NCBI GenBank assembly: GCA_001938485.1 | Contig: MQRK01252463.1 | Span: forward strand, 1 to 50,389 | Length of the DNA stretch: 50,389 nucleotides | From: Girardia tigrina | Lineage: Eukaryota | Direction of reading: 5' to 3' | Shown here: positions 8,664-45,155 of the stretch, in pieces | How positions within the stretch are numbered: the first letter of the stretch is position 1 | Layout of the letters: each line of letters begins with the position of its first letter | Notes under the pieces: model-generated | Database searches by the model: none | What the model saw: only the letters and a program-made list of their open reading frames with translations | What the model was told of the DNA's origin: nothing | Program-made: the position numbers and the translations under genes

Positions 8664-9808
8664 TTATTTAATTTCAATTTGTCCTCCATCTCTAAGAAAA
8701 CATTCATGCAAACGTCGTTTGTAGTCGGCCACAACGCGTTCACGAAGTGCGCGGTCTCCACGGATTTCATTGGCAACTCCTTCAATCGCTGCTCTCAACT
8801 CTTCGAGTGTGCTTGGACGTTGTTCGCGATGATAAATTCGACCTTTCATGTAGCCTGGCAACCAATAGTCACTTCTGTAAGATCTGGCGAGCGAGGTGGC
8901 CATGTAATTAGAGCAGGATGCGCCCGTGTTCTGTGACCTATCCATCGATTTGGAAACTGTTAACCCAACAATTCTAGAAAATCTCCAAGAATGTGTGGCA
9001 GAGCGCCGTAATGCTGCTCAATGAGAAAATTGAAATTCGGCCAAGTTTGAAGCTCTGGAAAAACGTGCTCTTGATACAATTCAGTCATCCAACGACCATT
9101 GATTCCGCGCTCATTTCCTTGTCGCTCCCAAAAGTATGGGCCAACAACACCTTCGACACCAATTCCCATCCAAACTGTCAATTTTTGAGGATGAAGTCGA
9201 CGAACATCAAACCAATGAGGATTTTCATCGGCCCACGTGATCCAGTCTTGACGATTCACGCTTCCGTCCAAATGAAAGTGGGCTTCATCCGCAAAAAGAA
9301 GATTGTTGAGTCTGTTTGCATCTTCATCCAATCGATCCAATTCGGTTCGAGCAAACTCAATTCGAGCGGCATAGTCGGTCTCCCCCAAGACATGAGCCAT
9401 TTGCAAATGATAGGGACGCATCGGTAAGTCTTCTTTCAAAATTCGCTGCAAGCTTCTTTGTGACATATGAACTGTTCCGTGATCGTCTTCTTCGCTGTCA
9501 GTGTCGCCAGTTGAAACAAATGGATTGCGTCGAGTTGATAGATGAGGATTTGCAGTAAAGGCTTCACGGACGTCCTTAATGGCTTCTTTGGTGCGAACAC
9601 GTTTTGGCTTGTTCTTTCCGCGCTTTCCATGGACACTTCCAGTCGCTTGAAAATCGTCAATCCATTTTACAATGACTCTATTTTCCGGAATCTTTGCTCG
9701 ACCATTTCTTGTTTCACTTCGAAATCGAGTTTTGAGCTGCGCATAATCATAGGCTTCCTCAACAAGTATCAAAACCAGATGAGCTTTTTGCTGATCCGTA
9801 TACGTCAT
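8664..9808 (-). pseudogene. rosa-like transposase with an in-frame stop (8960-8962), a mutated second catalytic D and a frameshift near 8870
   Basis: Motifs LLFADEAHFHLDGSVNRQ, LHPQKLTVWMGI, QHYGALPH (for QQDGAPPH), FPNRWIG, WPPRSPDLT, DYWLPGYMKGRIY. Confidence 0.9.
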
Positions 9809-10858
9809 TTGAATCAAATTTTAGGGTAAAACTTTCTAAGTTCATTTAAAAAAACGCTTGTTAAATTTTTCATCTCAAAATCTTTTTAATTTTTGATGTT
9901 TTTTTGATTTTTTTATATACCATCAGAATTTGGCGACGCTCAGGATTCTAAAAATGTATACTTTACCTATAAAAAAGTAGGTAGATAAAAAGATCCAATA
10001 GAAAAGTACCTTGGAGTTTATTTATCGTCACCCTGTATATAAAATATTTCCTCCTATATATTAAAAAAATTTAAAAAGCATAAATCTGTCTTAATATTTT
10101 TTATTTGTGATATTAATACATTTTTCTTAAAAATAGAAATTCGATTTGATATTATTAGAAATTATAATTTAAATGATATATTCTTCGTTATACATCATGA
10201 GAATAAAAAACGAATGACGTATAGACAATGGACACTTACGGCATTAAAAATTATGTGGTGTCATAAAATAAAAAAGGAATTTATTTTAGTAATTTATTGG
10301 ATTTTTCATTTTTATAAAATAAATATAATAACAATATCATTTCATAATCTTTTAGTGCACTTAAATTTTTTAGTATTTTTGAACAAAGAATGAAATAAGC
10401 ATTTCATTTTTATTTGCAGGAACATTGATATAAGTTTGGTCTTCATAAGTGCGTATCCATGTGTATGATGGACATGTTTATTGATACTTGTTTCATCTAA
10501 AAAAAATAATTTTAAAGGCATAATTTCGCTACGTATAAATTACACGTTACTTTGAACCGAATTTACACACACACACATATATATATATATATAGAAAAAA
10601 ATAATATTTTATATGTAACCAATTTTAATGCGATATCGAATAATAATTTATGAATTTTAAATTAAATGTGATTTATACACAATGGGTAATATCTTAAGGG
10701 TAATATCACTTAGTTCTTCAAGAAAAAGATTAATCAATTAAATTAGAATGTATTATATAAAGAAAATATTCTTACAAAACTTTTATATATAAAATTTATT
10801 TAATTAAAAAATATAAGATTTAATTTCATGATCCATTTAATTTCGATCATTGCTATGA

Positions 10859-12525: not shown

Positions 12526-15111
12526 TTAAATCATACATAAAACCATTCTACCACTCTCACGCGATTTGGTCTTTTCTTTGGCCTCTTTCTGTAATTTATT
12601 AACATCATTGTCAATGATTCTTTTGTGCTGTTATATTAGACAATATCAATATGATATCGGTATCGATTAATTCTAACTTGATGAAGTGCAAATTGGACTT
12701 TGAATCTCTTGAAGTCAGTCAGATTTGCTCGAATCGACTTCCTTTTCAGATCCTTGCCAGGCGGTAACTCCTCCCATTTCGTGGTGATATCAGCCTGTAG
12801 CTATCTGCAATGTGGGGTAACAAGGAGCGTTAGTTATCTTGTAAAATTTACCACGTGTGGATGGCGCTCGGAAGTCACATGGGTCGCCATTAATCCCGCG
12901 CATTGCTCTTCACCTTGATGAAGCGAAGGCAGGGGCGCAAGCCATCAATCGGTTATCGAGAAACAGAAATAGAGATCGGAATAAAATAAAATCGACAATA
13001 ATTCGCGACGTGTTAATATTGTTTATTTATGTTAAGACACGGGCAAAGGAGAAACACTTTCCTTTACTTTACTATTGTGCTTAACAAAAGAAGACAATAA
13101 ATCTTCTATTAATTTATTAAATCTCCTATGGAGTTAATTAAGTAAAATCTCCTTCGGTTAAAATCTAACAAATGATCAATATTTATTCAATTATCAATAA
13201 TGCAAAACGATAAGAAATAAAAATTTATTGACAATATAAACAATGTAGTACAATTTAATTGAAAGAAAAATAAAAATATAAAAATATCCCACGTGTGGAT
13301 TGTAATTAGAGCGCTTTGAAATCACCGTTTCAAAGCGTTCAACAGTTTAATAAATAACGATTATTAATTTATTATAATTCGAATTAATTATTTTATTTAA
13401 TTAAATTTTAAAAAAAGACTTAGTTTTAAAGGGAAATATAATAACCTCCAACTAAAGAAATCCTTCTAGATCGCAAATCGAAATCCTTCAATTATCCACT
13501 AAGCTCGTCGAAAGGAACTCGCGAAATCGAAATCCTCAATATTTCACTAAACTTGTCGAAAGGAANNNGCGAAATCGAAATCCTCAATATTTCACTAAAC
13601 TTGTCGAAAGGAATAATCTCCACGCAGTTAAAATTGGATTGAATCGTCGTCAAATGGTTTAGGGCCTGTTAAAATAATTATGTAACTACGGCTTGAGACG
13701 TTTTATCAATTATTTTATACTGTCTTGACGTAGTCGCGTAGTAAACAAGATTGTAAGAAGAATAATGTAAATCGCGTGTCTTGACGTAGTCGCGTAGAAA
13801 AAACAAGATTGTGATTTGCGCGTGGTCGTACAGTGATGCGTCTGAGAACAAACAATAAACGCGTGGCTCACACGAAAAAATAATAATTTGATTTAATTAT
13901 TTTACATTTAATTTGAAAATTTTTTTTATCAAGTTTACTTAATTATTTACAGTAAATTTTTNNNNNNNNNNNNNNNNNNNNNNNNNNNNNNNNNNNNNNN
14001 NNNNNNNNNNNATGGAGTTAATTAAGTAAAATCTCCTTCGGTTAAAATCTAACAAATGATCAATATTTATTCAATTATCAATAATGCAAAACGATAAGAA
14101 ATAAAAATTTATTGACAATATAAACAATGTAGTACAATTTAATTGAAAGAAAAATAAAAATATAAAAATATCCCACGTGTGGATTGTAATTAGAGCGCTT
14201 TGAAATCACCGTTTCAAAGCGTTCAACAGTTTAATAAATAACGATTATTAATTTATTATAATTCGAATTAATTATTTTATTTAATTAAATTTTAAAAAAA
14301 GACTTAGTTTTAAAGGGAAATATAATAACCTCCAACTAAAGAAATCCTTCTAGATCGCAAATCGAAATCCTTCAATTATCCACTAAGCTCGTCGAAAGGA
14401 ACTCGCGAAATCGAAATCCTCAATATTTCACTAAACTTGTCGAAAGGAANNNGCGAAATCGAAATCCTCAATATTTCACTAAACTTGTCGAAAGGAATAA
14501 TCTCCACGCAGTTAAAATTGGATTGAATCGTCGTCAAATGGTTTAGGGCCTGTTAAAATAATTATGTAACTACGGCTTGAGCCGTTTTATCAATTATTTT
14601 ATACTGTCTTGACGTAGTCGCGTAATAAACAAGATTGTAAGAAGAATAATGTAAATCGCGTGTCTTGACGTAGTCGCGTAGAAAAAACAAGATTGTGATT
14701 TGCGCGTGGTCGTACAGTGATGCGTGTGAGAACAAACAATAAACGCGTGGCTCACACGAAAAAATAATAATTTGATTTAATTATTTTACATTTAATTTGA
14801 AAATTTTTTTTATCAAGTTTACTTAATTATTTACAGTAAATTTTTGTGTGGTCTAGCGGTCTCTAGATAGCCTTTATCCATTCCATTCGCACAATCTTCG
14901 ACCTCGAGCCTCGTTTGAAATTCAATTTCAAAGAGGTCAACGGCAACTTTTTAGTGCTTATGCCTTGTCGTTGTACACCCGAGCACGGTCCATCAATCAA
15001 AGCTCGGTTTTGATCAATTATATGAACTATTACTGTCAATATGTCTTTCATCTTTCCGGCTGTAATTAAAGCCACTCGTCCAATTTCGATATTCTTTCTA
15101 CTATTTTTCAT
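12526..15111 (-). CDS. RPL14: 60S ribosomal protein L14 (eL14) homolog, segments 15111-14872, 12794-12678, 12627-12526; possibly a pseudogene
   Basis: EIGRVALI...IVHIIDQNRALIDGP...WIK|ADITTKW...RANLTDFKRFKV. Canonical 50-nt intron at 12628-12677. The first interruption (12795-14871) is an LTR-like insertion. Confidence 0.85.
12796..14867. mobile_element. Solo-LTR-like insertion in RPL14 (length probably inflated by an assembly duplication)
   Basis: Starts TGTAG, ends CTAGA (one change from CTACA). Flanked by cagcc/tagcc (5-bp TSD, one mismatch). Internal ~43-bp triplicated and tgtcttgacgtagtcgcgta duplicated motifs. Confidence 0.6.
13128..14845. repeat. ~835-bp near-identical direct duplication across an N gap, likely an assembly overlap
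   Basis: 13128-13961 matches 14012-14845 with very few differences and the same internal nnn. Confidence 0.85.
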
Positions 15112-24462: not shown

Positions 24463-26107
24463 ATGGAAAATAAACGAGCTAAATCGAAATTTCTGCACTT
24501 GTTTATGGAAGAGCTGGGAAAGGTTCATAGATTACCAATTTTGCGCAGTGATTGGAGTGATAACGAAACGTCTGATGTTGTCAAGGTCAAATTGGTGTTA
24601 CAGATGAACGAAACTGCTAATGAATATGAAACTCGTCTCAATTAAGCCGGCAAAATTATGGAGCAACAGCTAAATCAATTGAAGTCTATTAAAAATTAAC
24701 AAAATAATCAATTTGGTAATATGTTAGAGTTTTGGAAATATACATGTTGTTTCAGAATGAATTAAAAAAAATGAGAAATGAGGTAAAATACGTAAAAATA
24801 TTAAAGAAATTATTGAATTAAATTTACAAAATGATAAAACTGAACATTTTATAAAGTTGGTAGTAAATTATTTAGATGATAATACAACGATGAATTGTGA
24901 AATGAAAACATTTTTGAATTTTTTAGGAGAACAATTGAGAAAAATGCCTATGACAGATAACCTTCAGATTTTTATAACTCTTAATGGACAAGAATTTACA
25001 GAAATACAAATTGATCATCTTAAAAAAGTTAAACATTTGAAAGAAATGCTTGTGCAAAAGATTGGAAATGATAAATTTATTATGAATTTTAAATGTTTTG
25101 AATTAGAATTAGTCGACTATTTAGTGGATTATGGAATATTACCAAAAAACATTAATACTGTTGATATTATAATGTTAGAAAATAATGATAATAAAATGAA
25201 TATATCTGAACATTATATTAAAGATTTGGCATTACGATTAGAAAATGAAGTTAATGAAGAAAAGTTAAAGAATATAATTAAAGAAATAGAAACATTCAGA
25301 TTCCTGGTCACAACGCTTTGGAAGATGCCATCGCGATCAAGAATATTTATAAGGCAATCGAGCCGAATTATATCGATCACAGGATTTAGGAATCCATGGA
25401 AGTGGAAACCCAAAAAAAGAAAAACAGCGCCAGACTGTAGAATAGTGATCGATGAGAAAAGAAGAAAAAGAAATCTTGAAGAAGAATTAAAGATATTAGA
25501 AGTAAATTTTGACCCATTGGTAGATCCTGAGGTTGAGTTATTGGAGGAGGAGGATCTAATTGCGACACTGACGGAAGGAATTAAAGTGGATTTAGTAATC
25601 AGTTTTGGTACGCAAACTCATCGGAAAAAAACACCTTGAGTTCGGGACTCAAACCTTAAGACCAACGGTGGCCGAACAATCAACGAAGATTACAAACATA
25701 ACCCCGCAAAATCAAATAGAAGTCATGGGAAAAACCTACTATTTGGAGAAGTTAATTTTTCGGGCGGAGACGGGAGAACGGAAGGACCGAATTAAAAAAA
25801 ACTATCAATTCATAGAAACTGATAACACAATCGTGGGAAACTACGCAAATAATTCCAACCTATTCAAAAAAAGGAAATAATATGAACTAACATTGCAACA
25901 AAATCGTGGGATTAATTTAATACCCAACAAATATCTAAAATATTGTCCCTGATTTAAAACGGAAGGTCAAGGATTTGGTTAGGCGATACGGAAAAATATT
26001 TTGAATCGATTGAGTGTATGTTACGGTCAAATATGGGTCTATTATGAATTTGAGGGAGTGGTGGATCGATCATCGGCGGCTCTGGAGAGTTTATCGAGTG
26101 AGATAAT
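24463..26107 (+). pseudogene. Decayed intronless ORF with a ubiquitin-like domain; origin unknown
   Basis: Consecutive plus-strand ORF pieces. 24962-25175 reads LQIFITLNGQEFTEIQID...VKHLKEML...ELELVDYLVDYGI, which aligns by eye with ubiquitin. Confidence 0.55.
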
Positions 26108-27998: not shown

Positions 27999-28682
27999 TG
28001 TGAGGGATATTGAAATGATGTTTAAATGAAGTTGAGTGATTGTTCAATGAGTTTTATAATATGTTTGAGACTGGTTAGTTTTTGAAGCATAACATCTCTC
28101 CATAGACAATTGAAGTCAATTATTGTTGAATTTAAAAATATATTACTAATTGTATAATAAATTAATTGTTATTTAACAATTAATTAAAAATACAATTGTT
28201 TTAATCATTGAAGATTTTGGCAAATTTTTGAAGAAACAAGTCATGCCACAGACGCTGATTACATATCATTTAGTCTTGATAAATCTTATAATAACACTTG
28301 TTAGTATTCTTAATATGGCGACCACGACTCCCATGAACCTCACGCTCAAAGGACCAGAAATCTATTATGGAAACGACAATGTGTTGCAGAATTTATCAAA
28401 GAATTCGACAGATATTCAAATTCGATCAAGATTCCTGAAGAAAAAAAGATGTTGCTGGTAACCGTTTTTCTTTTAGCAGAAGGCAGGGACAAATACGAAA
28501 TCGCAGAAGAAAATTATGTTGCCAAACTGCGATCGGCTTTTTTAAAAAAGACAAATCTGTTGGATATAATGGGAGAACTCTATCTGTCAAAACGCAATGG
28601 AGAAAATCCTCAAAAATTTTTCAAGATGGCGGACCAATTAATAGAAAAAATTGGAAAAAAAGAATTATCAAATCAAGTATAA
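27999..28682 (+). mobile_element. Gypsy 5' LTR (27999-28315), PBS and truncated gag
   Basis: LTR start TGTGAGGGATATT, PBS TGGCGACCACG, gag-like MATTTPMNLTLKGPEIYYG...KLRSAFLKKTNLLDIM with a frameshift. Confidence 0.75.
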
Positions 28683-29081
28683 ATGAATTAATTATCAGAA
28701 AGGAGGTCATCGTCTTCATCATACCTTTTACTGCTGGCTAATTTTTCTTCAGCCTCATTATCGTAGAATTGACATGCTTTGATTGGTTGAGCTCTAATTC
28801 GTTGCATCAATGGTAGTAGGCATTCGTATTTCTCATCATCTTCGTAACTCTCTACAACTTTGTTTTTTAAATTATACTGATGTAATGTTCTTGGCATTTT
28901 AAAATTAATTTACAGTTTTAATATGAGCAACACTTAATAATAGGCAATAAATGTGAGATACTTTCAGTAAATTACAGTCAGTTGGCACTAATCTAAGCGG
29001 TCCTAGGCATAAAATAATAGCATATTATAACAATGATGCATCAAGCATTTAATTCGAGAATGAGAGGGATATATTCAAATA

Positions 29082-29780
29082 TTAGGTTGGTCGAAAAATA
29101 ATGGCGGTTTTGGAACACAAACTTCAAACACGTACAAATTCTCAGAAACAACAGTTTATTAATCAAAGTATGAACCGTTGGCATCAATACATTTTTGCCA
29201 ACGAGAAACAAGTTGTTTTATTGCATCAGCAAGTTGCATCAGCATAAAATGCATCGGTTCTTGAAGCGACGAATTCTTAGAATGCATTTTGAGCATCATT
29301 TTGGTTTTTGAAAATATTTTCACGTAGGAAGTTGTTCAAATGCCTGAAAAAGTTGAAGTCCGTTGGCGAGAGGTCTGGTGAATATGGTGGATGAAGCAGG
29401 GTTTCATAGCCCAACTCACTAAGCTTTTGAAGAGTCACTTTTGAAATATGAAGTGTAACGTTATCATGAAGAAGGATGGGACTTTTTCGATTGACCAATC
29501 CCGGACAAAGGGTTTTCAATTTTTTATGCATTTCATCAATTTCATGACAGTACCTCTCCGCTGTGATTGTTTCANNNNNNNNNNNNNNNNNNNNNNNNNN
29601 NNNNNNNNNNNNNNNNNNNNNNNNNNNNNNNNNNNNNNNNNNNNNNNNNNNNNNNNNNNNNNNNNNACTTCATCTTTGTCCAACCACTGTGCAGATCGAC
29701 GTCGGTTATCATATAGGATCCATTTCTCATCACATGTAACAATACGATCAAGAAATGGATCGTTTTTATTGCGAAGATGA
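29082..29780 (-). mobile_element. mariner (DD34D, Hsmar1/SETMAR-like) 3' half
   Basis: TA plus TIR ttaggttggtcgaaaaataatggcggttt. Motifs RIVTCDEKWILYDN, LLHDNV, HPPYSPDLSPTDF. Confidence 0.92.
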
Positions 29781-29829
29781 TTGGCGGAACAAATTTCATA
29801 GCGTATATTATTATATTTATATAATATTT

Positions 29830-30731
29830 ATATTTTTTCACATCTATATCATCCACACAATGTGTCAAAAAATATGACATTAATTCTGGTTTGGTCCATT
29901 TATGATTGAGGATTCGGTCAACCATCTTTTCGATTTTATTGCAATATATAATCGCTGAATCTTCGCCTTTCCTGTAGTTGATTATTTCTTGTAGATCTTG
30001 AATCAGCGACGTTGGTCTTTTGAATGCTTTCCTGAGTCGGTCAAGGAAATTAAAAATCATACTGTCCACATTTTCATACGTGGCAAGCAAATCACAGTGT
30101 ATAAATGCTTTAACCACCAGTGGTTGTAATGTCTCACTGATTTGTGAAACCTCAAAAAATCGCTGGCAATCTGTGATGAACTGTTCCAGATCTCCCACTC
30201 CATTATACATTTGAGGCGTCAGGTTATTTATGGCACTTGGTGTGGTCGCCATGTAAGTACTTTCCATTATAAAAAGAAAATATCGCTATTAAGAACACCA
30301 ACATGGGTTTTCAAACTTTTCTTTTCAATACAATCAGAATTGTCTTTTGGACAACTCTCAGCAAAACTCTCGTCATTCGACATCGTTCTAAATTGATAAT
30401 TTTTGTTAATAAACAATTATTCGAACAAATTTTTCATTATTTTCAGATTTTATTTTTAAAGTTCAAATTTTGGTAGTTTTAGTATTAATTTTATTTAAAA
30501 ATTATTTTACGTAAAGAAAGAACATTTATTTAATTCAAAACTTAGTTAAAACTATTTATTTTATTTAAATTTTAATATGAAGATTTGAAAAGATTTAATA
30601 TTTTTATGTTTTTAAATATCTTAGCTGTACTTTAAAATGTAAATTATACTCGAATAATTATCTATACTAAACTCAACATACAAAATTCAACAAACCAATT
30701 TCAACATAACAAATTTAAAATATTCCTCACA
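29830..30731 (-). mobile_element. Gypsy 5' LTR (30731-30252), PBS and truncated gag
   Basis: TGTGAG...CTTACA termini, PBS TGGCGACCAC, gag PQMYNGVGDLEQFITDCQRFF...LRKAFKRPTSLIQDL. Confidence 0.82.
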
Positions 30732-30842
30732 ATCGCAAAACACAAAATCTAGCAAAATTTATTAATATTCAAAATTTGTGCCAAAACACAATATGAAAAA
30801 CAAATCAGGAGTTTATAAAATTAATCTGGATCCAAATTACAA

Positions 30843-30889
<47 letters not shown>

Positions 30890-31359
30890 ATATGATAATT
30901 TAATATAAATAGTAATATATAAGTTAATTTTCCTAACAATAATATAATAATTTGTTGAGCGTGGATAGTACATCTCGATTTCGACGACAAGAAAAAAGAA
31001 ACACAAGAAACAAAGCTAACAAAAAATAAAATATCATCTTCACCAAATTACCAATATCCTGACAAATAGCTATTACCACTGACGATATTATCAACAATTA
31101 TTAACGAGGTTATTGACAATATTGTTCTGATTAATTACCTGACGATATTATTCTGATTAGTTAGCCGACGATATTGTCCAACTATTTTTTTACGCTGTTA
31201 TTATCATTATTGTTATTTTAATCTAATTCATTTATTCGTTGAAACCGGTTTTTTTTATTTTGTTATCTCCACAAGTCTAAACAGATTCACCGCACAACAT
31301 ATTATTTCGGTTAATCGGGTTAGATTTTAATTATTCGACCAATAATAAAACATTCTATT

Positions 31360-32356
31360 CTAGTTAGAAATAGTGTTTTTAATTTCCCTCTAATTGTAAT
31401 TCGGAAGGTAAAACCATTATTTCAACAACATCCATGGCAATTGTTTTGCCAGAAAGCGTTTTTATAAATATCTGCAATTCTGTGTCTTTTCAGTCAAACA
31501 TTTTTTTTTCATCCTCATATTCCGGCAAATCGAGATCTTCACTGCCAACTACACCCTTCACAAAATTCGAATTTATTTTTTCAGACGGAATTCTTGGGGA
31601 TTCGGTTAAATTAGCTAGACTTGCGACTCAATCGTTATAATCCTATTTATTGATTTTTCCACAATCGAAGCAAATCCACATGATTTTATCAGAATATTTT
31701 AATGATTTTCTTTTAACAGATAATATAATCGGTGCTCCATGCTCCAAGATATCTAATCGATAAAAACCATCAGTACCATAATTGTCGATGAAAACACAGT
31801 GGTCACACAATCTTTTATTATTTAATTCTCTCCATCCACATTGAAAGCAGTACTTTTTCTCATTTATCACTCGGCACACATCGCATCGTTCACTAAAGGC
31901 CTCATTTATTGAAGTGCAGAGAGAGCAACTCAATTTCATCATTCTCTCTCTACCACAACATTCACACCGCTGAGAGGAGACATCATTAATTAACTTCCAA
32001 ATGTCACACTTCCATTTACCGCGAAGATTGATATTCTATTGACTGTAAACTCTGATTTCCTTTGCGACGGTAACCAATTGGATCTTGTTTGTCTTCAATG
32101 ATTTATGTATGGCGATTCCACATCGTATACAAACTTCACTAAATTTATTAAAAATTTTACATTTCTTACAAATCCAAATTTGATCGAGGGTATGATTCTT
32201 ACACCGACAATCATTTCTCATGACCTCTCGATTCCACACGATTGACAATATTTATCTTTTTACAAAATTGATACGGTCGAATTATTCGTAATTCATGTTT
32301 GGTATGTGGGTGCCCATTTAACCACAACCAATTTCTGCTCCAAAATATTGAGCCAT
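31360..32356 (-). pseudogene. Decayed ORF: five RanBP2/NZF-like Cys4 fingers plus a ubiquitin-like segment
   Basis: One frame broken only by stops: WICKKCKIFN...CIRC, WKCDIW.LIN...CECC, LSCSLCTSIN...CDVC, YCFQC...CDHC, WICFDCGKIN, then LQIFIKTLSGKTIAMDV (31477-31427). Confidence 0.75.
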
Positions 32357-33757
32357 TTTTTAAATTTCAAGTAATAAGATCAAAACTCAGTTCGCTTTTT
32401 TAAAAAACTTTTATTTTCAAAATGTTTTCATGATATGATTAAATTGATCAATTAAAACAAATTTAACCCTAAATTTTCACAATTATAATTCGATTTTAAA
32501 TTAAATGTTTTTATCACAATTTTAAATAATTAATTGATTCATATTTGAATCTTCCAATTATTACCATGTTTTAAATAAAAAATTCTCAATAAGCTGGTTG
32601 AGACTGACGATTGAATATTGATTTTAAGGCAAAATGCTTCATGCGACACTGTCTAATAATAGTAATTGTGGAAATTCAGTGATTATTATCACGGAAATTT
32701 AGTAAAGCTTCATTGTCTTATTCGTTTATTCATACTCATTGCCATTTTAAAATATTTAAGTGTATTAATTAAAGTGTTTACCATAGTTCCATCAACAGAA
32801 ATGACTTGCTTTTATTGAGAAGGTTCTTATACTCATGAGTTTCAATGATCGGGAAAGGTTCAATATTACGTTTCGGCCATGTATATGCCGACTAATCATA
32901 GATCCATCAACAAAAGAGATGTACAAAAACAAGCAACATCTTTATGTTGTGTTTCTTACTTTGATTACATAAACATCTGACCGCAATTTCAATTTTGAGT
33001 CATTTACCCAGAGAAACACATCATACTTTAATGTTTACCTCAGATGCGTGTATTCGCGCTCCTCAACATTTACGTAACCCATTACCTTCCATAATTCTAT
33101 AAACTAAAATTTTTTTTTGGAACTTTGTTTCAAATTCTGATAAATTTCAACTTATATTTTGTTAAATCTACAGTGAAAAATTAGCAAACCTCATTTGAAT
33201 ATCAGAGAAATATATCTAATAGATATAGCAAAAAGGTTAGATATATGTAAATACTGACAGATAGTCACGAAATTTGTGATTTTTAAGTTATCACATATGA
33301 GGTCAGTGGTAGATAATTGGTTAAGTTTGCAAGTCGTATTCCTCAAGCCACAATTCCTCAATAACTCAAGCATGTGAAACAAGCAATAACCAATAACGTC
33401 GAACCAAAATAACATTTTAAATCGTTGCTACCGCCTGAGATCCTGGGTTTGTTTCTAGAAATATAACTTGAAAAGTAGACCCAAATATTATGCGGGTGCC
33501 AGAATAAATTAGTTAAGCAAGCAAAATTACTTGGCTTCATTTCGACCCGTTCTCATTGGAAATTATCCATAGTTCGACATTACTGAGAAAGGGAACGCCT
33601 TCCCCGATCCGATGCCGGTCGTCGTCTCTTTGCATCTCTTCTCTATCAGGCCCAATATCCCTACAAAAATAAAAATTGTATTGCAAGTAATAAGTAAGAA
33701 AAAGTCTCCCTAATGACCTCGGCATTTGAAACATTAAAATCTGAATTTAAAAGTTTA

Positions 33758-34842
33758 AAATTATTCACTAATGAAAAATATTCACCAATGAGGTGCGTAA
33801 ACCAGGCGTCCGTTTTGAACTGAAAACGGACAGCACTTTTAAACACGCAAAAGAATATCGGCTGAAGGCTTGAAAGGTAAACACGCACACACCCGAAGAT
33901 ATAATATTGTTAAAATTGGATATATCAAGAAAATGAACGAAAAGTTTCGATGAGAACCGACTTAGGTTGATGATAAAGTGAAATCTGAAGTGCTATCGAA
34001 TTTCGTTCTTAAATGATTTTGTTTCTTGGAATATTGATTGCCGTCGAACGATGAATTTCAAGGCGGAAAGAACACTCTTATTTTGAGAAGAAAATCTTAA
34101 TGAATAATTGCTTGTCGTTCGGGAAGTGGCACGAAGGAAGTTTGATATCGTAATATTCTTTTATGTGATTCCTTCGAATGAAAAAAGAATGAAAAGTCGG
34201 CCCAGCATATCAACGACAAATTTGTAACTGCTCCTTAATCACGTCTGCCAGTTTCTCGATGCGACCCGGGAAAAGAGCCGACCAATTTCCATTTTAAAAA
34301 ATTTAATTGGATTTTATTATTTTTAAAAATTTAATTGAATTTTATAATTTTATGTGGTCTCTTTTTCCGCTCTCCGATATTTTGGTATTTACAGAAAAAA
34401 TAGACGAACATTAACCGGTACATAATTTGCGCAGTGCAAAGAAATATCAGGGACTAGATTCAGATTTTATCTTTAAAATGTCAGCTGCTAAGGAAGGAAG
34501 AGACTATGGACCAAACAGATCCTAGTTTTTTTTCAACTAGTTTTTCTACTAGTTCATCAATCTTTTTTAAATACTTCTGATTGATTTTTATCCCCAATTA
34601 TATCTAAATTTTATCTATTCATTATATCTAAAATATTTTTCTCTTTCGAGAATAATAAATTATTCACTAATGAAAAATATTCACCAATGAGGTGCGTAAA
34701 CCAGGCGTCCGTTTTGAACTGAAAACGGACAGCACTTTGAAACACGCAAAAGAATATCGGCTGAAGGCTTGAAAGGTAAACACGCACACACCCGAAGATA
34801 TAATATTGTTAAAATTGGATATATCAAGAAAATGAACGAAAA
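33758..34842. repeat. 186-bp direct repeat pair (33758-33943 and 34657-34842)
   Basis: Copies differ at about one position; the second copy interrupts the gag remnant. Confidence 0.9.
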
Positions 34843-35558
34843 AAATGCACTTCTCATTCTCGTTTCCCAGCTTCCTCCTTGTGTCTTCTCATATTTGTTT
34901 ATCGCTTCTGGGGTCATGAAAGCTGTAACTAATATTGCTTTTCTTTCTTCCTTAAATCCCAAAATCATTGAATATCTCTCAAAGCTTATTAGGAATTCTT
35001 CTAATTTTACTTCTGACACATCGTATGTCTCCGTCCCTTGATAACTGATGTCACGTAGTCGTGTGTCGCCATATTAAGAACATTTAAACAAGTCTCGTTT
35101 GAATGTTTATTACAATCACATTTAGAGTCATTATGACTCTCAGAAAGTCTTTCATCGTTTGCCATCCTTCTAATTGGTTTTGTTATTTCTGTTATTAATC
35201 ATGATTATTCGAAAAAATTTTCTGAATTAATTTTTAAAATATTAATTAAAAAATAATAATTTTTACCAGTTCTCAATAAATCTTAAAATAATAAAAATGT
35301 CATCAAATTATTAAAAATGCATTTAATTTAAATTTTTCTAAAAATTAGTAAACTTAATTTTAATTGTGAAATTTTAAATATGAACCTATCAAATGATTAT
35401 TTGAATTATGTTCGAATAGTCAATCACTTTAAATTTAAATAAAAAAAATACCAATTTCCATCTGGGTGGGAGAATCACTTTCTAAATTCAACATATTTAA
35501 ATCAATATACCCCATCCATACATTTACACATTCAAACAATTTTAAAATATTCCTAAGA
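34480..35558 (-). mobile_element. Gypsy 5' LTR (~35558-35072), PBS and degraded gag
   Basis: The LTR resembles the 30.3-30.7 kb LTR (aggaatattttaaa start, gttcttaata motif). PBS TGGCGAC. gag KLEEFLISFERY...RMRSAF...KEKNILDIM. Confidence 0.75.
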
Positions 35559-36339
35559 GTCTAATTTAAAAATAGTATCAATAACAAAAAATTAAACAAT
35601 AACTTGTGAATTTGTTAAATTATTCATTTGAAAATCACCGGTATAAAATTTGAAATAAGTTTAGTTCAAAAATTCTAAATCAATGATTAGATCTCGTTAC
35701 AATTCTTTGATATATAATAATCCAGTGAACGAAATTTTGTCAAATTATTCTTCTAATTCAATTAAGCCTTTCAAAGTGCTTTTATAGTGCTTTCATAGTG
35801 CTCATTTAAAAACTCTTTTACTTGGTTCTAATTGGGAAAAATATGATTCAATTATGCCTGATTTGTGTAATCAAATTGATTTTGAATTAATATGGAGGCA
35901 CAGTTTCCGTTCCAGCGGAGGAACATAATTAAAAAAATATAAACTTTTTTTTCAAAATATCGTGTTTAAAACTCTAATTAAATCTAAATATTTAAACATA
36001 TTTTGAATATTATCTAACTGAAATATAAAAAAATAATTTTTCAACTGCAAATATTCATTTTATTCATAAAAATATTTAGAAAATTAAGAAATTTGTGCTA
36101 AAAAAATTTATTATTTTGAATATCATCAATTAGTCTTCGTCACTATCTTCATTTAATTCTACCTTCATGTCAAATCCGGAAATCAGAAAAAAATATTTAC
36201 TGGGTGATGTGAAAGTCTTGTAAAAAAGCACTTCAAACAGATTAACATGTACATATAAGAAAATGTAACAGAAAGCGCTATGAAACTTTAAATTCAATTT
36301 GAATAGAAGTGTTTCAAACAATTTATTTGAAATAATCAC

Positions 36340-36850
36340 CTCGCATGCACGACGGTGTCACTGATATCATCATCTCGTTAGCGAATGATACAGTTATTAT
36401 GACGGTTCAATGATCGATCTACTGTGAAATTTTTTACGTCTTCAAATACATTATCGAATCCTGCTGGACGGGACTTCGTGTCGTTAAAAGCGTCTGACAC
36501 CGTTCAAAACGATTCTGCTTCATTTCATTGGTTAGAATAGGTCTCTCAATAATCACAAGACTCTTGATAACAAGTTTCTTGACTATACGACTGATATGTG
36601 ACTTATAAAAACCAAACTTTGAAACATGAACTGTGATTGATAGCTCTGGATGAGCCTTGATGTTCTTTCTGAGCTGGGATACATTTATTTTTTATTTTTG
36701 ACCACTCCTATAACTGTCATGAAGACTCTCGTTTGAAGCCAAACGTTTGCTGCATCAATTAAAAATACCGAGCTACTTCAGCGATTTTCTGTTCTCGATT
36801 AAAAGTGAAGAAGAGCACGATTCGGAAACGTATATTCATTCTTATTATAC
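36340..36850 (-). mobile_element. maT/DD37D-like transposase N-terminal remnant
   Basis: ISRIVKKL...ERPILTNEMKQNRFERCQTLL...VFEDVKNFTVDRSLNRHN resembles the FSDEKxFTVD...NRQN motif. Confidence 0.65.
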
Positions 36851-36959
36851 ACGTATTATCTTTTCTTTTTCTTTTGAACCTTAGCCATTGAGCCTTAAGT
36901 GCACCCAATTATGCACAACCATTCGCTACCTCTATTTTCCACATCTATTTTCAACTTAA

Positions 36960-38535
36960 ATATATTTTAGATTTTCAGTATAGTGAAATTTTATTATAAA
37001 TAATCAATCATTTCATCATCAAATTTATCGTATTTCAGTGTTTTAGACTTTCATTTGGTTACAAAATTCGGTTATTTTGAAAAACTGGTATTTCGTTGAA
37101 TGTTGATATTTTTAAGTAAGAACGGTGTATAAGTAACAAAACTTTAAAATAATTTTTCTCTGAATTAATAACAATGAACTTCTGTAATTTTATATACAAA
37201 TATTATTTTTAGATTATCGACATAATTTACAAAATTTTGATTATATTAATTTTAAAATAATGAACATTTAGCACTTTTTTTTGAAAATTTTTAGTATTTT
37301 TTATAATCTTCGTTCATTCTAGTATATCATATTTATCTTCTTATATCTTAAATTTATTCTTATATTTTTAAATCATATTTTGAAATAAATTTCAGAAATA
37401 TTTTTAGTCTAGTGAAATTTTATTATAAATAATCAATCATTTCATCATCAAATTTATCGTATTTCAGTGTTTTAGACTTTCATTTGGTTNNNNNNNNNNN
37501 NNNNNNNNNNNNNNNNNNNNNNNNNNNNNNNNNNNNNNNAATCATTTCATCATCAAATTTATCGTATTTCAGTGTTTTAGACTTTCATTTGGTTACAAAA
37601 TTCGGTTATTTTGAAAAACTGGTATTTCGTTGAATGTTGATATTTTTAAGTAAGAACGGTGTATAAGTAACAAAACTTTAAAATAATTTTTCTCTGAATT
37701 AATAACAATGAACTTCTGTAATTTTATATACAAATATTATTTTTAGATTATCGACATAATTTACAAAATTTTGATTATATTAATTTTAAAATAATGAACA
37801 TTTAGCACTTTTTTTTGAAAATTTTTAGTATTTTTTATAATCTTCGTTCATTCTAGTATATCATATTTATCTTCTTATATCTTAAATTTATTCTTATATT
37901 TTTTAATCATATTTTGAAATAAATTTCAGAAATATTTTTAGTCTAGTGAAATTTTATTATAAATAAACAATCATTTCATCATCAAATTTATCGTATTTCA
38001 GTGTTTTAGACTTTCTTTTGGTCACAAAATTCAGTTATTGTGAAAAACTGGTATCTCTTTGAATGTTGATATTTTCAAGTAAGAACGGTACAGAAGTAAG
38101 AAACTTTAAAATAATTTTTATCTGAACTTTTGTAATTTTAAATACAAATATTATTTTCAGCTTATCGACAAAATTTTACAAATTTTTGATTATATTAATT
38201 TTAAAATAATGAATAATTCTGAAAAAAATAAAAATTAATTTTACAAAAAATCCATGTTCCATTTTGAAATTTAAGTTGATTTTTCAAAATTAAACATTTT
38301 TTTGGCTTTTATATAGAAAATATTCGTTTTTATAAAGAAGTTATTCGTTTTTATAGCTAAATTCAACTTTTTTTGCAAAAAAAGTAAGTGTATCTTTAAG
38401 TATAAAAACATTTATTTCTTCAACATTTAGCACTTTTTTTAAATATTTTAGTATTTTTTATAATCTTCCTTCATTCTAGTATATCATATTTATCTTCTTA
38501 TATCTTAAATTTAGTCTTATATATTTAAATCATAT
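36960..38535. repeat. Tandem array of ~430-bp AT-rich units spanning a gap
   Basis: tagtgaaattttattataaataa...atcatttcatcatcaaatttatcg recurs at ~36981, 37410 and 37943 (partial at 37540). The last copy is diverged; a partial copy lies at 38420-38535. Confidence 0.85.
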
Positions 38536-39490
38536 TTCATTCATTCCTTATGAATTATATATTACTATCAAAACTAATTAAATAAATATTATTTTTAAAA
38601 CCATTCTTACGTATATGGGCGACGGGATATAATGTGTTTACTTTAAAAGCGTTTATTTGTGCGAGATGAAATAATTCATGTCGTTGAGTTTGATGTAATA
38701 GGTATTTTTATTAATAAAAAATTTTCCAAAAAATTATATATGTAAATTTTACTTATCCAAAATTTTAATCTATCAATAAATAGAGATATCATAAATAAAT
38801 TCTCAAAAAAATATTTAAAATAAAAGAAGTATCGAAATAAATTATAGATTAAATAAAAGAAATGATATTTATGAATTGGAAAACAACTTTTTGTTCAGTT
38901 TTGCGTCGAAAAGAATTAATCTCTCTATTTTTTCAATTATTCGAATCGGAAAAAGTATAATTTTAATGCGTTTTAAAAAAATAAATATAAAGAAATTTTC
39001 AAATAAAAAATATTTTAATTAGTTTAAATATTACAATAATAAAATACTTTCCATAAAATTAATCGGTTAAAATTATTTGGAAGAAATACAATTTTTAGAA
39101 TTGTCACAAAAATTTAGTTAGAAATATTTTATGTATATTAAAATACTTTTGTTTTTGACCTTTTGAAGTCGTGATCTTTTATCGAATTTAAGAATACTTT
39201 CGAATTCAAAACACTAATTAAAAACAGTACAATAACCATATCTTAAGTGAAGAATCTTGTTAATATAATCTCGATAAAAATGTGTCATTTAGAAATTCGT
39301 TTGTTCTGTAAATAAATTTTATTTATCTTCCTAATATAATTAGTATTTTTTGTACAATTAAAATAGACATATCTGAAACTCTTCAGTAATTATTTTTAGA
39401 AACTATTACTAACATGTAACATTTTATATCATTATATTATATGATGTATTGTAAATTTTGTCAAACTTCATTTAATATAACACAACTCTA

Positions 39491-39990
39491 ATGGCAGGTA
39501 ATCAATTCGAATGACTCAAGAAAGATTGTTTACTTCTTTGAAAATAAGAAGAAATATTGAATTTGAAATCGATGGTGACTGTGACAGAGATATGCTTTGT
39601 GTGATTTGTGAGAATGTATTGATGAACGCTCATTTGGTCCTTGTGGGTGTCGATATTGCCTAGATTGTGTGAGAGAATATTTGAACGGAGAAGAGAAGAT
39701 GTCCTGGGAATACAGACGAATGCCACGAGGAATTATTAGATATTGATAGAAATGTTTGTGAAGATGAGCTGATGAATATACAGCTTTCGAGAGTGATTGT
39801 GAAATGTCCTCATTTTAATTGTCAGTTCAAAGATGAAGTGAGAAGAATACAAAGTCACTTGAAAAAATGTGGTTCTTTATCAACGACTTTAATGTTTCAA
39901 AATAGAAACAATAGCGATTCGAATACATTAAGTGATGTTAAGAGAGACGAAATTCTGAGAGGGGTTTTATTACAATCAAAATCTTTCTTA
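39491..39990 (+). pseudogene. TRAF-like RING finger plus zinc finger remnant with frameshifts
   Basis: CVICENVLMNAH/GPCGCRYCLDCVREYL.../CPGNTDEC, then VIVKCPHFNCQFKDEVRRIQSHLKKC, the N-terminal TRAF arrangement. No MATH domain seen. Confidence 0.8.
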
Positions 39991-40237
39991 TCAGACATAT
40001 TTGACGTTAATATTCCGAATACCACTAAAACTATCAATCACCCCATCCAACCTTCAGCACAGCAGCATGAAAGTAGTGTGAATCATAAAAATACACAAAC
40101 AACACAACATCACCACACACAACCACCTTCACAAACATCAAGAACAAAAAAAACAAGTTCGTTTCGCTACATATTCACACAGCAAATCAACTGATAACAT
40201 AACCCGATTACAACACAAAACCCTAATCCTTCTTTCT

Positions 40238-40592
40238 AGACGGGGGGATATGTTGTGTTGTAACTTTTGTAAATTATTTTTATTGTGCAGCTTTGTTTTT
40301 TTGTTGGTTGTACATTGAAAATTATGTAAATTTTTTTGTGTAAATTGTTATGTAAAAAAGAATTATTTTTAATGTGAAATTGAAATAACTGTAAAAAATT
40401 TGGTTTAACTTTATATTGAACTTGATTTTAATTACTTTTAAAAATATTAGTTGTAAAATTTTTTTTTTGCGAATATTGTCTCATTATTTTAGATAATTTT
40501 CTTATCATGAGAAATTTGTTTTAATTAACTATTTGATTAAAAATAAAATTATTTGAATCTAGACTATTTTTGCTTTTTTGATTGCTGCAACA
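40238..40592 (+). mobile_element. Polypurine tract plus 3' LTR (40251-40592)
   Basis: AGACGGGGGGATA directly before TGTTG. Inverted end CAACA at 40588-40592, AATAAA near 40542. Confidence 0.7.
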
Positions 40593-40683
40593 TCTCTTCA
40601 CTATTCAATTCAGCATTTGTTAAATCACTGAAATTAAATATCTTTGTTTCGTCCTTTCGGAACAAATAAAAAACGAAAACCAA

Positions 40684-40911
40684 ATGAGTGATTCATTATC
40701 ATCGGACTGTGAAGATGATACCAATCGTTTATTGGAATTAGAAACCATACTATTAGAAAACAGCGTTTTTTTTAAACTCCGAAGCATTTGTCGAGACCGT
40801 CCGATTCCCAGTCATTTGCGACAAGAAGTTTGGAAAATCTGTCTCAATATCAACCCCCAAATCGATCAACTGGAGCAATTCAATGAACTATTCGATTTAC
40901 CGAACCAAGAC
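40684..40911 (+). CDS. TBC1D23: TBC1 domain family member 23, first exon or 5' fragment
   Basis: LELETILLE...LRSICRDRPIPSHLRQEVWKICLN...FDLPNQD matches the TBC1D23 N-terminus as I recall it. Candidate donor gtaacc at 40912. No further exons recognised in the window. Confidence 0.8.
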
Positions 40912-40919
40912 GTAACCCC

Positions 40920-43049
40920 ACAATTCTTCTTCTCTTTTTTCCACACATAAATTAATGGTGTATTCCGAGGTGAATTACACTTCCGAATGATATTATTATG
41001 ATACCAATTTTTTATAGTCTCAATGATTTTTTCTTCGAGATGCATTGGTTGACGAAAAGGTTTTAAATTAATTGGCTCACCATTCGTCTTAATATGATGT
41101 TTTGCTAAACTGGTACATCCGATATCCCATTTGTCAGCCATGATTACTTCTGCTTGAATCCGAATGAGCTCTAACAGTTTTGAATCTACTTAACCTATGC
41201 AATCTAACGCTCTTTTCAATCTCTCTCCTGGCCTTATCACCCTGCCGAATTTCGCCTCGATGTTACACACACTTCCACGTGCTTCCCTAGATACATTATT
41301 TTCTTGAGACTCGCTCCTTTGTATGGAATAACCGAAAATTTTCATGAATACTATGCCTCCGATCAGTTCTGGAACCACACTCTCCACAACAATAAATGGT
41401 ACTACTTTTCTTGTCTGACATAGTTCTACTTCTACGTCTATTTTACCCAATACTTTCAATTTTCCGTCGTTGGCAACTCTCAAATTGATATCACGTTTTT
41501 ATAACACCAAATTATTCAAATCTTGATAATACTTCTTACTCATAACATTAACACCTCCTCCATCCATCAAACACTCCCATTGTTTCCCCTGAATTTCCAC
41601 TGTAACGCTCGGGCTCCCCTGCATTTTACTATAACATATCTCTGATTTCTGATCTTCAATCAACGCGTTAACATAGAATACTTGTTCAAAATTCTTTTTC
41701 GCAAATCCATAGACCTTATTCATCGTTCGCACATCTAGCTCGCATCCGAATCCGTGGGAATTATCTTCTAATCTCAGTGGCATCCGGCTCCAACCAACTC
41801 CCCAATTGGCGATCCCAGTCGTTTGGGTACGGCTTATCGTTTTTTTCTTCATTATCATCAAATGTGCGTTCTTCATCTTCGTTCATTGTGTTGATTTTAA
41901 ATTTTCGATCATTGTTCTGCATTCTCGATCTTCTATTGTTGTAACTATTATTTTGATTGCTAGAGTTCACTAAACATGCCGCTGTTAGATGCCCATTCCG
42001 GCCACATTTTTCACAGCGTATCTCTGGACATTGAGTTCGCCTATGTCCTTTTTTCCGCACAAGAAACAAACCAATGGCTGTCTGTTAGGGCAGTTTCGAC
42101 TGATGTGCTCAGTCTCTTTACAATTCCAACACTGCACAGGTCTTCTTTGTTGGCAATTTCTGCTGAAATGTCCTGGTTGCTGACATGTATAGCATTTGGA
42201 CTCGGTTGATTCCACTCTTGAGAGTTGTTTTCTCGACTGAGTTTGATTTACCCATTTTTTAGTTACCTCAGGAGCCCTGCTGTTTTGAACAACATCTCGA
42301 TAACTTCGGACAGCATTGATCCTGCTCTTCTTTTCGTGGTTTATTTCGTCTACGAGAGCAACGAACTCAGATATTTCCTTGGCACTCTTTAATTTCCGTA
42401 ATTTAATTTCACGAACAACATCTTCATCATCAATGCAATGAATTAAAATTTGAGCTTTTAGCTCTTCTTCCTCGAGTCTATGCGACAACGCATTTTTTTA
42501 CCAACCGGTCTACTTTTTTGAAAAAGGTCTGTGCGTTATCAGCACCTTTGCGATAACTCAACAGTTTTCCCAATCCGTCGCGGCTGCTCTCGGCTTCTCA
42601 AACGCTAGTCTTAGCCGATCCTCAAAATTATCAGCTTTACCAGCTGTGTTCTCATATGCTTCCAAGAGATATATCATGTATCATGGAGTAAATACATGTT
42701 TGCCATTTCTTTTGATTAATTCCCGCTGCTTCAAAATATCTTCTGCAACGAGAAATAAATTTCTCTAGATCTTCTCCGATCTGGAACATGTCAGGAATCA
42801 GTCGGTTCGTGATTGAATCCGCTAGCGCTGCCACCATGTTAAGTTGGGTATTATCTTCCATTCTAAATCAAAAGAAATTAAAATTTTCAAAATTTATTCA
42901 AAATCTTGTTATTTAAACAAATTTTCATTTTTTTATTTTCTTTTTTTTAATTTTCCAATATTTTTTTAATTTCGATTATAATTCGAAATTTTTAAAAAAC
43001 CGAATTTCCTATTTCTGAAAATTAAAAAATTAACAACAACACTCTTACA
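40920..43049 (-). mobile_element. Ty3/Gypsy element: 5' LTR (43049-42837), PBS, gag, protease and RT start; 3' truncated
   Basis: TGTAAG...CTTAACA LTR, PBS TGGTGGCAGCG, four CCHC knuckles, protease ECLMDGG.VNVM...LIGGIVFMKIFG, and ADKWDIGCTSLAKHHIKTNGEPI...SPRNTPLIYVWKK. Confidence 0.92.
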
Positions 43050-43115: not shown

Positions 43116-45155
43116 TAGTGCACTATCGATTATCCGGGCTAATGCTGGGGTGGATGGACACGTTTAATTGAGAAACACGGTTAATCAGAATCATCAAATT
43201 TTTATTTTATTTTCGAATACAATATCATCTACACAACATAAATTTTTAACACATTATTTTTATATTCATTATTTATCAAGAAACCCAAAAAAATAAGTAA
43301 ATATATAATATTTATCATAAATCATAAAATGAAACATCAATAAATCATCAAAATATAAAAAAATATACATCGTTTTATATATATACAAATTAAAAAATCT
43401 GTTATTTTTGTTTGTTTTTGACGTCTTTTTAGAGAATTTCTAATTTCACATCTAAATATCCTTAAAGCCATAATATTATTATATTCTGTTCCCCTTTGAT
43501 TAGCATACTCTAATAGTGTTTCTAGACAATTTAATGCCGTTTCATGGCTTACGTAACCACTGATGTCTTCTTCGCTTGAAGTATCACTCTCATTTTCTTC
43601 CTCTTGAGTGACAAGAGAAAGGATTTCAGGGTCATCCATGCGTTGAAATCCGGGGTCATTCAAATCACGGTTGAGCTATTCTTCTATATTTTCTTCATCC
43701 ACGTCTTTAAAAAAAATTTATATTTTCTAATAATCCACACAATTCAGTTACAAAATTTTCTTCATTCTCTTCCGGATCCATTAAATCTTTTTCTATGTCA
43801 GGAAGAATCTTTCTCCATGATCGAGCGAGTGTTACTGGCTTCACTTTTGTCCAAGATTGCGCTATCCCATGTATANNNNNNNNNNNNNNNNNNNNNNNNN
43901 NNNNNNNNNNNNNNNNNNNNNNNNNNNNNNNNNNNNNNNNNNNNNNNNNNNNNNNNNNNNNNNNNNNNNNNNNNNNNNNNNNNNNNNNNNNNNNNNNNNN
44001 NNNNNNNNNNNNNNNNNNNNNNNNNNNNNATTTTGTGATCATAAGTCCATCGTTTTTCTTCAATATGCTTTCATTCGGATGAGAAGAAGCATTATCTAAT
44101 AACAAAACTGCTTTCTGTGGCAACCCCTTATTTTTTAAAACTAATTGCACCTCTTGGACCCATTCCTTTTTGAACCAATCTTCAAAAATTTCCCTGTCCA
44201 TCCATGTCCCTTTCTGACTATAATAATCGACGGGAAGATTTTTTACTTCGGTTCCCTTAAAGGATCGAGGTTTTCTTGATTTTCCGATTACTAACAGTGT
44301 CAATTTATGCGATCCGGATGCATTCCCGCAACATAAAACCGTAATTCTCCCTTTGGACGATTTATGTCCAGGAGCAGACTTTTCTCTTATCGAAGCTAGA
44401 GTTTTTGTTGGTAAACACTTCCAGTACAAGCCAGTTTCATCTGCATTATAAATTTGATCAGGTTGCAAATTTTCTCTTTGCAAAAATTCTTGAAATTCGA
44501 TACAGAAGTCGTGAGCAGCGTCAGTATTTGAACTGAGGCGTTCTCCCTGAATCGTAAGCTGACGAATCCCGTGTCGCTGTTTGAACCTCGTCATCCAGCC
44601 TGACGAGGCGTTGAAATTTTCTTCGATTTCTAAATTTTTATGAAATGTCTTCGCTGCTTCGATGCACATTTCGCCACTGATTGGTATTCCCTATGCTCGT
44701 TTTTGATTGAACCATATCAGCATGGCTGCATCCAAATCTTCGAATGTCGACGTTTTCATACTCTTTCGTTTCGAAGGGCCTGCAGAACTATCGCAATCTC
44801 TAGCAAACGCCTCTAACTTATTTTTTTGTTTGACTATATCTCGAACAGTTTGAATACAAATTCCATATTCTTCGGAAAGTTTTGACATGGATTCTCCTAT
44901 TTCGCATTTCTCAATCAACGTAAGTTTCTGTTTTATCGTGAGTACGATTCTCTTTCGTTTTTTTGTTAATTGTTCTTTTTCCATTTTTAAACGGTACAGA
45001 TATGTAGAGCTAAAATATGAATTTTTGAGATTATATATAACAATAAAAATAATATCAAACAAAAAGAAATTAAAAATAATCAAACTAAATTTTTATTAAA
45101 AAATATTTATTTTCAGGCACGGTTAATCCGCGCACGGTTAATCGAGAGTACACTG
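43116..45155 (-). mobile_element. Near full-length Tigger (Jerky-like) transposon; transposase ~44984-43390 with a stop and a frameshift
   Basis: TA-flanked TIRs (c/t)agtg(t/c)act(c/a)tcgatta. HTH KRKRIVLTIKQKL, ASSGWMTRFKQRHG, YNADETGLYWK, LLLDNASSH, C-terminal QTKITDF. Confidence 0.95.

Follow-up and report, generated by a model that had tools for sequence, protein, structure and literature searches.

A gag reading frame that probably begins within the 5' LTR and crosses the primer binding site in Ty3/Gypsy elements of Girardia tigrina

The primer binding site (PBS) of Ty3/Gypsy retrotransposons begins with TGG, the complement of the CCA end of the primer tRNA, and usually lies in an untranslated leader. 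The GAG gene of Ty1 starts inside the long terminal repeat (LTR). Of the Saccharomyces elements, Ty1 has its PBS inside the GAG open reading frame (ORF) (PMC4974528), and neither Ty1 nor Ty3 inherits its PBS, for the most part, from the tRNA (PMC5371799), according to the parts of these two papers that were consulted. Here we describe four broken LTR elements of Girardia tigrina, the 5' ends of which lie within positions 27999 to 43049 of a stretch of 50,389 nucleotides (nt) (contig MQRK01252463.1 of assembly GCA_001938485.1; hereafter, the window), which forms a single contig of an AT-rich genome of 1.43 Gb. All four elements are truncated, and three of the four are frameshifted in gag. They are numbered 1 to 4 by the final base of their 5' LTR, at 28315 (+), 30252 (-), 35072 (-) and 42837 (-), and their families (the 28315, 30252, 35072 and 42837 families) are numbered in the same order. 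Judged from the sequence, the gag frame probably opens at an ATG within the LTR and continues across both the LTR terminus and the PBS, such that translation would likely start in the LTR, in the manner of Ty1, in a lineage of small Ty3/Gypsy elements.

The likeness to Ty1 lies in the coding PBS, which is common to both. By contrast, Ty1 is a Ty1/copia element primed by initiator methionine tRNA, whereas the elements described here have the pol order protease, reverse transcriptase, RNase H and integrase (PR-RT-RH-IN) and primers of the Arg and Leu types; in addition, their LTR end and PBS form an in-frame ATG, and rare copies with a tRNA-derived PBS do integrate. With Saccharomyces Ty3 they share the Ty3/Gypsy domain order, an interrupted (bipartite) primer pairing and a PBS that is not perpetuated from the tRNA (PMC5371799, in part), but the 5' PBS segment of Ty3 adjoins the 5' untranslated region (UTR) and lies outside GAG (PMC4974528, in part). 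The Mag lineage, as represented by mosquito elements in the passages seen of PMC3286476, is similar in size (~4.5-5 kb), short LTRs, 5-bp target site duplication (TSD), Leu/Ser/Arg primers and lack of env; several Mag elements differ in having long 5' UTRs. These passages do not mention a gag start within the LTR or at the PBS ('ATG' has 0 occurrences in them), and none of three motifs searched in the supplement was found at a junction in the passages seen. No named reference RT was present among the 120 matches listed. The microsporidia-specific Ty3/Gypsy groups are set apart by their description in the portion seen of PMC4202319: they have one polyprotein frame and LTRs of 50-120 bp, whereas here LTRs are ~200-490 bp, Gag proteins end at ~350-400 amino acids, and gag and pol are separate overlapping frames (in the metagenome element L309 gag stops and pol overlaps it in another frame). 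A full-text literature search, outside of which most older and subscription papers fall, brought up no description of Ty3/Gypsy elements in which the PBS is translated.

The A-TGG junctions that the original prediction quoted are present at all four positions, with gag frames reading MATT, MATT, MATH and MVAA, and the LTR ends proved to be the true ones when fixed without use of the PBS, by solo LTRs and two-LTR copies with 5-bp TSDs. The 5' LTR of element 1 spans 27999..28315 (+) and has TG...TA ends. Among 30 loci of its family, a PBS-like stretch follows the LTR at 7 and is absent after 23, and these 23 loci carry an exact 5-bp TSD (16 loci), a TSD with one mismatch (5 loci) or none (2 loci). 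The 5' LTR of element 4 (42837..43049, -) has TG...CA ends, and its family includes solo LTRs with TSDs as well as 3' LTRs preceded by a polypurine tract (PPT). The 5' LTR of element 3 lies at 35072..35558 (-), with a degenerate, approximate start. The LTRs of elements 1 and 3 end in TA rather than CA, as TSDs confirm for the element 1 family. The LTR of element 2 is in two parts, a 5' part at 30732..30938 (-), the start of which was set by likeness to a two-LTR relative, and a 3' part at 30252..30286 (-); it is split 35 nt from its end by a solo LTR from a sister subfamily, nested within it (30287..30731, -; TSD GCGAT), which has an in-frame ATG of its own at 30381-30383 (-), 96 nt before its end. 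That the 30252 junction might not be an LTR end was considered and rejected, as the LTR of element 2 does end there and is merely interrupted. Two-LTR copies of 4.3-5.1 kb were found for all four families, and no nucleotide separates the LTR from the PBS.

In Ty3/Gypsy elements the integrase needs an LTR-terminal A and the CCA of the primer needs TGG. Since these always spell ATGG, the junction ATG, composed of the last LTR base and the first two PBS bases (28315..28317, +; 30250..30252, -; 35070..35072, -; 42835..42837, -), is unavoidable; its presence thus says nothing on its use, and only its frame is informative. Frame was scored against a capsid anchor located independently by tblastn from residues 14-70. 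By this approach, 169 junctions were examined and 144 were anchored, of which 124 were in frame with gag, and the frames are thus not random; 8 of the 20 out-of-frame rows were tRNA-corrected copies collected on purpose. Between families, the distance from junction to capsid varies by whole codons only. The PBS falls within the gag reading frame with no untranslated leader between PBS and gag, in agreement with the prediction that it is translated, and the usual (not strictly defining) Ty3/Gypsy arrangement of a PBS in an untranslated leader is not found in these families. The Arg-type junction pattern had 1,452 matches in the genome compared to 0 for a reversed control. A Trp-PBS pattern, used as a control from other Gypsy clades, had 0 matches, and a looser control pattern had 18; among these 18, five Leu-type junctions (L517-L519, L528, L532), the LTR ends of which are unfixed, run into a stop within 27-85 codons and have no capsid motif. 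No verified junction was detected at 76 distant metagenome loci examined as a control.

The original prediction had noted an in-frame ATG upstream in the LTR of two copies. This ATG exists, but the count was too low: all four copies have one, at 72, 15, 93 and 24 nt before the junction (28243..28245, +, the likely gag start of element 1; 30265-30267, -; 35163..35165, -; 42859..42861, -). In the families the corresponding distances are 78, 15, 93 and 24 nt, with the frame open through the LTR end, and the upstream ATG with its open frame was detected at 27/30, 16/19, 29/38 and 50/55 LTR ends of families 1 to 4. The mean number of in-frame stops in this segment is 0-0.37, compared to 0.5-3.1, for three of the four families, in the stretch of like length that directly precedes it. 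Eight further subfamilies and L309 have the same layout, with the ATG at 39-96 nt. In 0.7-19% of trials, shuffling of the LTR ends of 13 representatives produced an in-frame ATG with an open frame as long as the one observed. Four LTR segments of 96 nt differ at 32-46 sites per pair with no stop gained (no-stop probability 0.11-0.20 per pair). A similar extension is present in proteins: of 66 distant Gag relatives, chosen for N-terminal coverage among 150 matches listed, 46 carry 3-38 residues N-terminal to the motif (N/Y/H/E)-M-A/V, the first residue of which is N in 41, and the extension is spread over the whole gag tree (a quick tree of 70 rows). At the level of sequence comparison, the LTR-coded extension of 3-38 codons is one in which the frame is kept and the amino acids are not. 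In the element 1/3 subclade the extensions are Cys-rich and have a fixed Asn-Lys, encoded by an AATAAA located 27-42 nt before the LTR end and always in frame; such a pattern may come from poly(A) signals that also serve as code.

In the family of element 3, ~4 out-of-frame ATGs lie between the upstream ATG and the junction; these would be met first by a scanning ribosome, which disfavours the junction ATG as a start. After the junction, this family has no Met before ~codon 53 or before the capsid motif. Thus, the claim that gag starts at the junction ATG in these four elements is unsupported, each family having kept a stop-free, in-frame ATG in the LTR. In the mechanism we propose, gag translation would start at this LTR ATG, the PBS would be read as codons 2-6 after the junction Met, and the frame would be held across the lineage with the LTR peptide free to change; coding would lock the length of the PBS, and tRNA-corrected copies would be frameshifted and lost. 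The junction ATG is likely to be a harmless internal Met or a fallback start and, wherever the upstream ATG is lost, the sole start. On this account, a large Ty3/Gypsy lineage would have a coding PBS of the Ty1 kind throughout, a single stretch of 15 bases would serve integrase, primer tRNA and gag frame alike, and annotation that seeks gag only downstream of the PBS would miss the Gag N-terminus.

The interrupted PBS of element 3 (35056..35071, -) has a 7-nt contiguous match to tRNA-Arg(ACG) and, in its family form, two unpaired bases. In this family and its sisters, the PBS exceeds the tRNA complement by two bases, with a placement that differs among subfamilies. The extra base is kept in 98 of the 100 first-listed of 1,052 matches to the interrupted PBS, and a sister subfamily has the standard PBS length in 91 of the 100 first-listed of 357 matches. 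Copies in which the PBS had been corrected to the tRNA and rejoined to gag numbered 17 (9 plus 8), none of them in frame with either the upstream ATG or the junction ATG, as determined for 8 by the capsid anchor and for 9 by counting matched letters; the second set of 8 are all +1. The corrected forms pair with an energy of about -33 to -36 kcal/mol, compared to -19 to -23 kcal/mol, and these better-pairing forms have not spread, which argues against a gag start downstream of the PBS. If the PBS is code, its length is locked, and a PBS that is two bases longer cannot be corrected by tRNA copying without a frameshift; we infer that corrected copies would die on arrival. Their rarity would also fit the yeast finding of a mostly non-inherited PBS, and low inheritance and selection may both be in play, inseparably here. 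No synonymous bias was demonstrable within families over gag codons 8-70, where shared variants were too few. The interrupted PBS extending two bases beyond the tRNA complement, with its frameshifted corrected copies, is new here and provides a genomic read-out of primer-sequence inheritance, a subject studied mostly in yeast.

Several observations weigh against a start within the LTR. A related family beginning MATTTGV (44 matches, all outside the window; loci L426, L501, L503 and L512) has no open upstream ATG in 28/29 copies. Selection on the LTR-coded peptide is unsupported, as there is neither a third-position excess nor a synonymous bias. Among the 66 Gag relatives, 10 begin at the junction Met and 10 are without the motif, and starts in this protein set are the choices of gene callers. 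The 15-nt extension of element 2 is weak when taken alone (19% by shuffling, no stops in any frame), and some copies of element 3 and the sister subfamilies have another ATG 24-37 nt further upstream. Probabilities are not multipliable across subfamilies, which share ancestry, and a single insertion may be represented more than once, by its alleles, among the 17 corrected copies. Contigs of seven RNA runs, which cannot reveal ends, include no canonical splice joint and no recurring leader among the rows shown. A search for TATA/initiator-like motifs marking the transcription start was clear in one family only.

The MATTTGV family has an in-frame stop 24 nt upstream of the junction, no ATG in the last 55 nt of the LTR in 29/29 copies and no Met in the next 90 codons in 28/29; it also has a TATA-like box at -79/-80 in 24 copies and TTAGTT at -55. 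Its two-LTR copies carry TSDs, pol and a gag frame of 348 codons. Over gag codons 8-70, 3 synonymous and 8 non-synonymous changes in this family give no sign of selection on gag. Its nearest tree neighbour has a 5-codon extension. For this family alone, the original prediction of a start at the junction ATG holds, as this ATG is the sole candidate there.

This family also bears on the best surviving alternative, that both AUGs are used, with leaky scanning from the LTR AUG to the junction AUG giving a long and a short Gag in a ratio that primer annealing could shift. We consider this unlikely for the lineage, even though the MATTTGV family seems to depend solely on the junction ATG, which stays in frame over the whole tree despite extensions of 3-38 codons. 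The junction ATG has a G at +4 in all families and an A at -3 in most, and the families of elements 1, 2 and 4 have a mere 0.05-0.07 out-of-frame ATG per copy between the two starts; the family of element 3 and several sister subfamilies, however, have 2-4 such ATGs in between, and retention of the frame may be historical lock-in. Of about the same, or slightly lower, plausibility is the notion that the primer site is a translational control point, at which the tRNA would cover the AUG at the LTR-PBS border and act as a translate-versus-package switch (on the sole start in some families and on a second Gag isoform in others), and coding constraint would push the PBS away from the tRNA complement and purge corrected copies. 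Families that have an upstream ATG and those that lack it offer a ready comparison on the question of whether initiation is blocked when the primer binds.

A start at the junction ATG in all families, with the upstream ATGs unused or outside the transcript, appears quite improbable. It has the MATTTGV family in its favour, but an upstream ATG followed by 15-96 nt of open frame is retained in 13/13 other representatives, and an unused stretch would not stay open while diverging at 32-46 of 96 sites. There is a still slighter chance that the start is provided or displaced through a YTTAG shortly upstream, at which the transcript would be spliced or would receive a spliced leader in trans. In several subfamilies a TTAG precedes the LTR ATG by 1-5 nt, in the MATTTGV family an in-frame TTAG precedes the junction by 21 nt, and some flatworm leaders end in AUG, with use of a leader AUG reported in literature abstracts. 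Against this, genomic RNA must retain the R region for strand transfer, and the RNA contigs, weak evidence as they are contigs only, show no leader-like loose end that recurs among the rows shown. The least credible alternative, that the frame is coincidental and gag starts downstream of the PBS, has in its favour the forced nature of the junction ATG and a Met 6-15 codons after the junction in the families of elements 1, 2 and 4, but these Mets are not common to the families, that of element 3 has none before ~codon 53, the distance to capsid differs by whole codons and frameshifting PBS corrections have not spread, such that this alternative is largely refuted by the 144-junction frame test and the 66-protein Gag comparison.

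The primers were predicted to be Arg- and Leu-tRNA, and the PBSs do match host tRNA-Arg(ACG) and tRNA-Leu(AAG/TAG) genes, the contiguous match being 11-14 bases long for elements 1, 2 and 4, and 7 bases long for element 3. The PBS of element 1 (28316..28326, +) has an 11-nt match to tRNA-Arg(ACG), that of element 2 (30238..30251, -) is for the same tRNA (14 nt in the family, with one mismatch in the window copy), and that of element 4 (42826..42836, -) has an 11-nt match to tRNA-Leu(AAG/TAG). Four tRNA-Arg genes are clustered within 1.3 kb at locus L146. At six loci (L442, L464, L468, L470, L441 and L252) an LTR continues into 17-39 nt complementary to tRNA-Arg, beyond which the DNA is unrelated. 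These are probably integrated plus-strand strong-stop products, and as such they indicate tRNA-Arg(ACG) as the primer of the interrupted-PBS subfamilies too. The 225 matches found in the search for such loci are mixed, as about two thirds of 30 loci read belong to a separate family with a true 18-nt PBS.

Two LTRs, PBS, PPT and TSD are all present, as expected of Ty3/Gypsy elements. Pfam gave the pol order PR-RT-RH-IN (family copy L112) and zf-CCHC in 5/8 members, and RT is present in two-LTR copies of all four families. No Pfam capsid domain was matched in the Gag of members; Atlas look-alikes have Retrotrans_gag/Ty3_capsid. Neither the Ty1/copia order (IN before RT) nor an errantivirus env ORF was found, the 3' LTR coming after IN. 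The RT of the families of elements 1 to 3 is ~48-67% identical, by segment, to one protein of the element 4 family, which points to old splits among the families and to a gag frame that outlived a primer switch.

The gag remnants in the window, all with approximate ends, are frameshifted and truncated in element 1 (28243..28680, +) and element 3 (34830..35165, -), open for ~140 codons and then truncated in element 2 (29830..30267, -), and frameshifted with CCHC knuckles in element 4 (41780..42861, -). Element 4 also retains a broken, truncated start of pol (40890..41882, -, end approximate), and copies of its family have PR-RT-RH-IN. Elsewhere in the window, an open frame of 285 codons at 24782-25639 (+) is without a Pfam match, and a broken ORF at 39510-40190 (+) has a Cys/His spacing that by eye is like a TRAF-type RING plus zinc finger, one piece of which had no match in a Pfam scan. 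Near-identical direct duplications at 13128-14497, 33758-34842 and 37006-37839, two of which adjoin 50-N gaps, are likely assembly artefacts. DNA transposon remnants at 43340-45092 (-), 8960-9820 (-) and 5493-6086 (+) are pogo/Tigger-like (CENP-B_N match) and Tc1/mariner-like.

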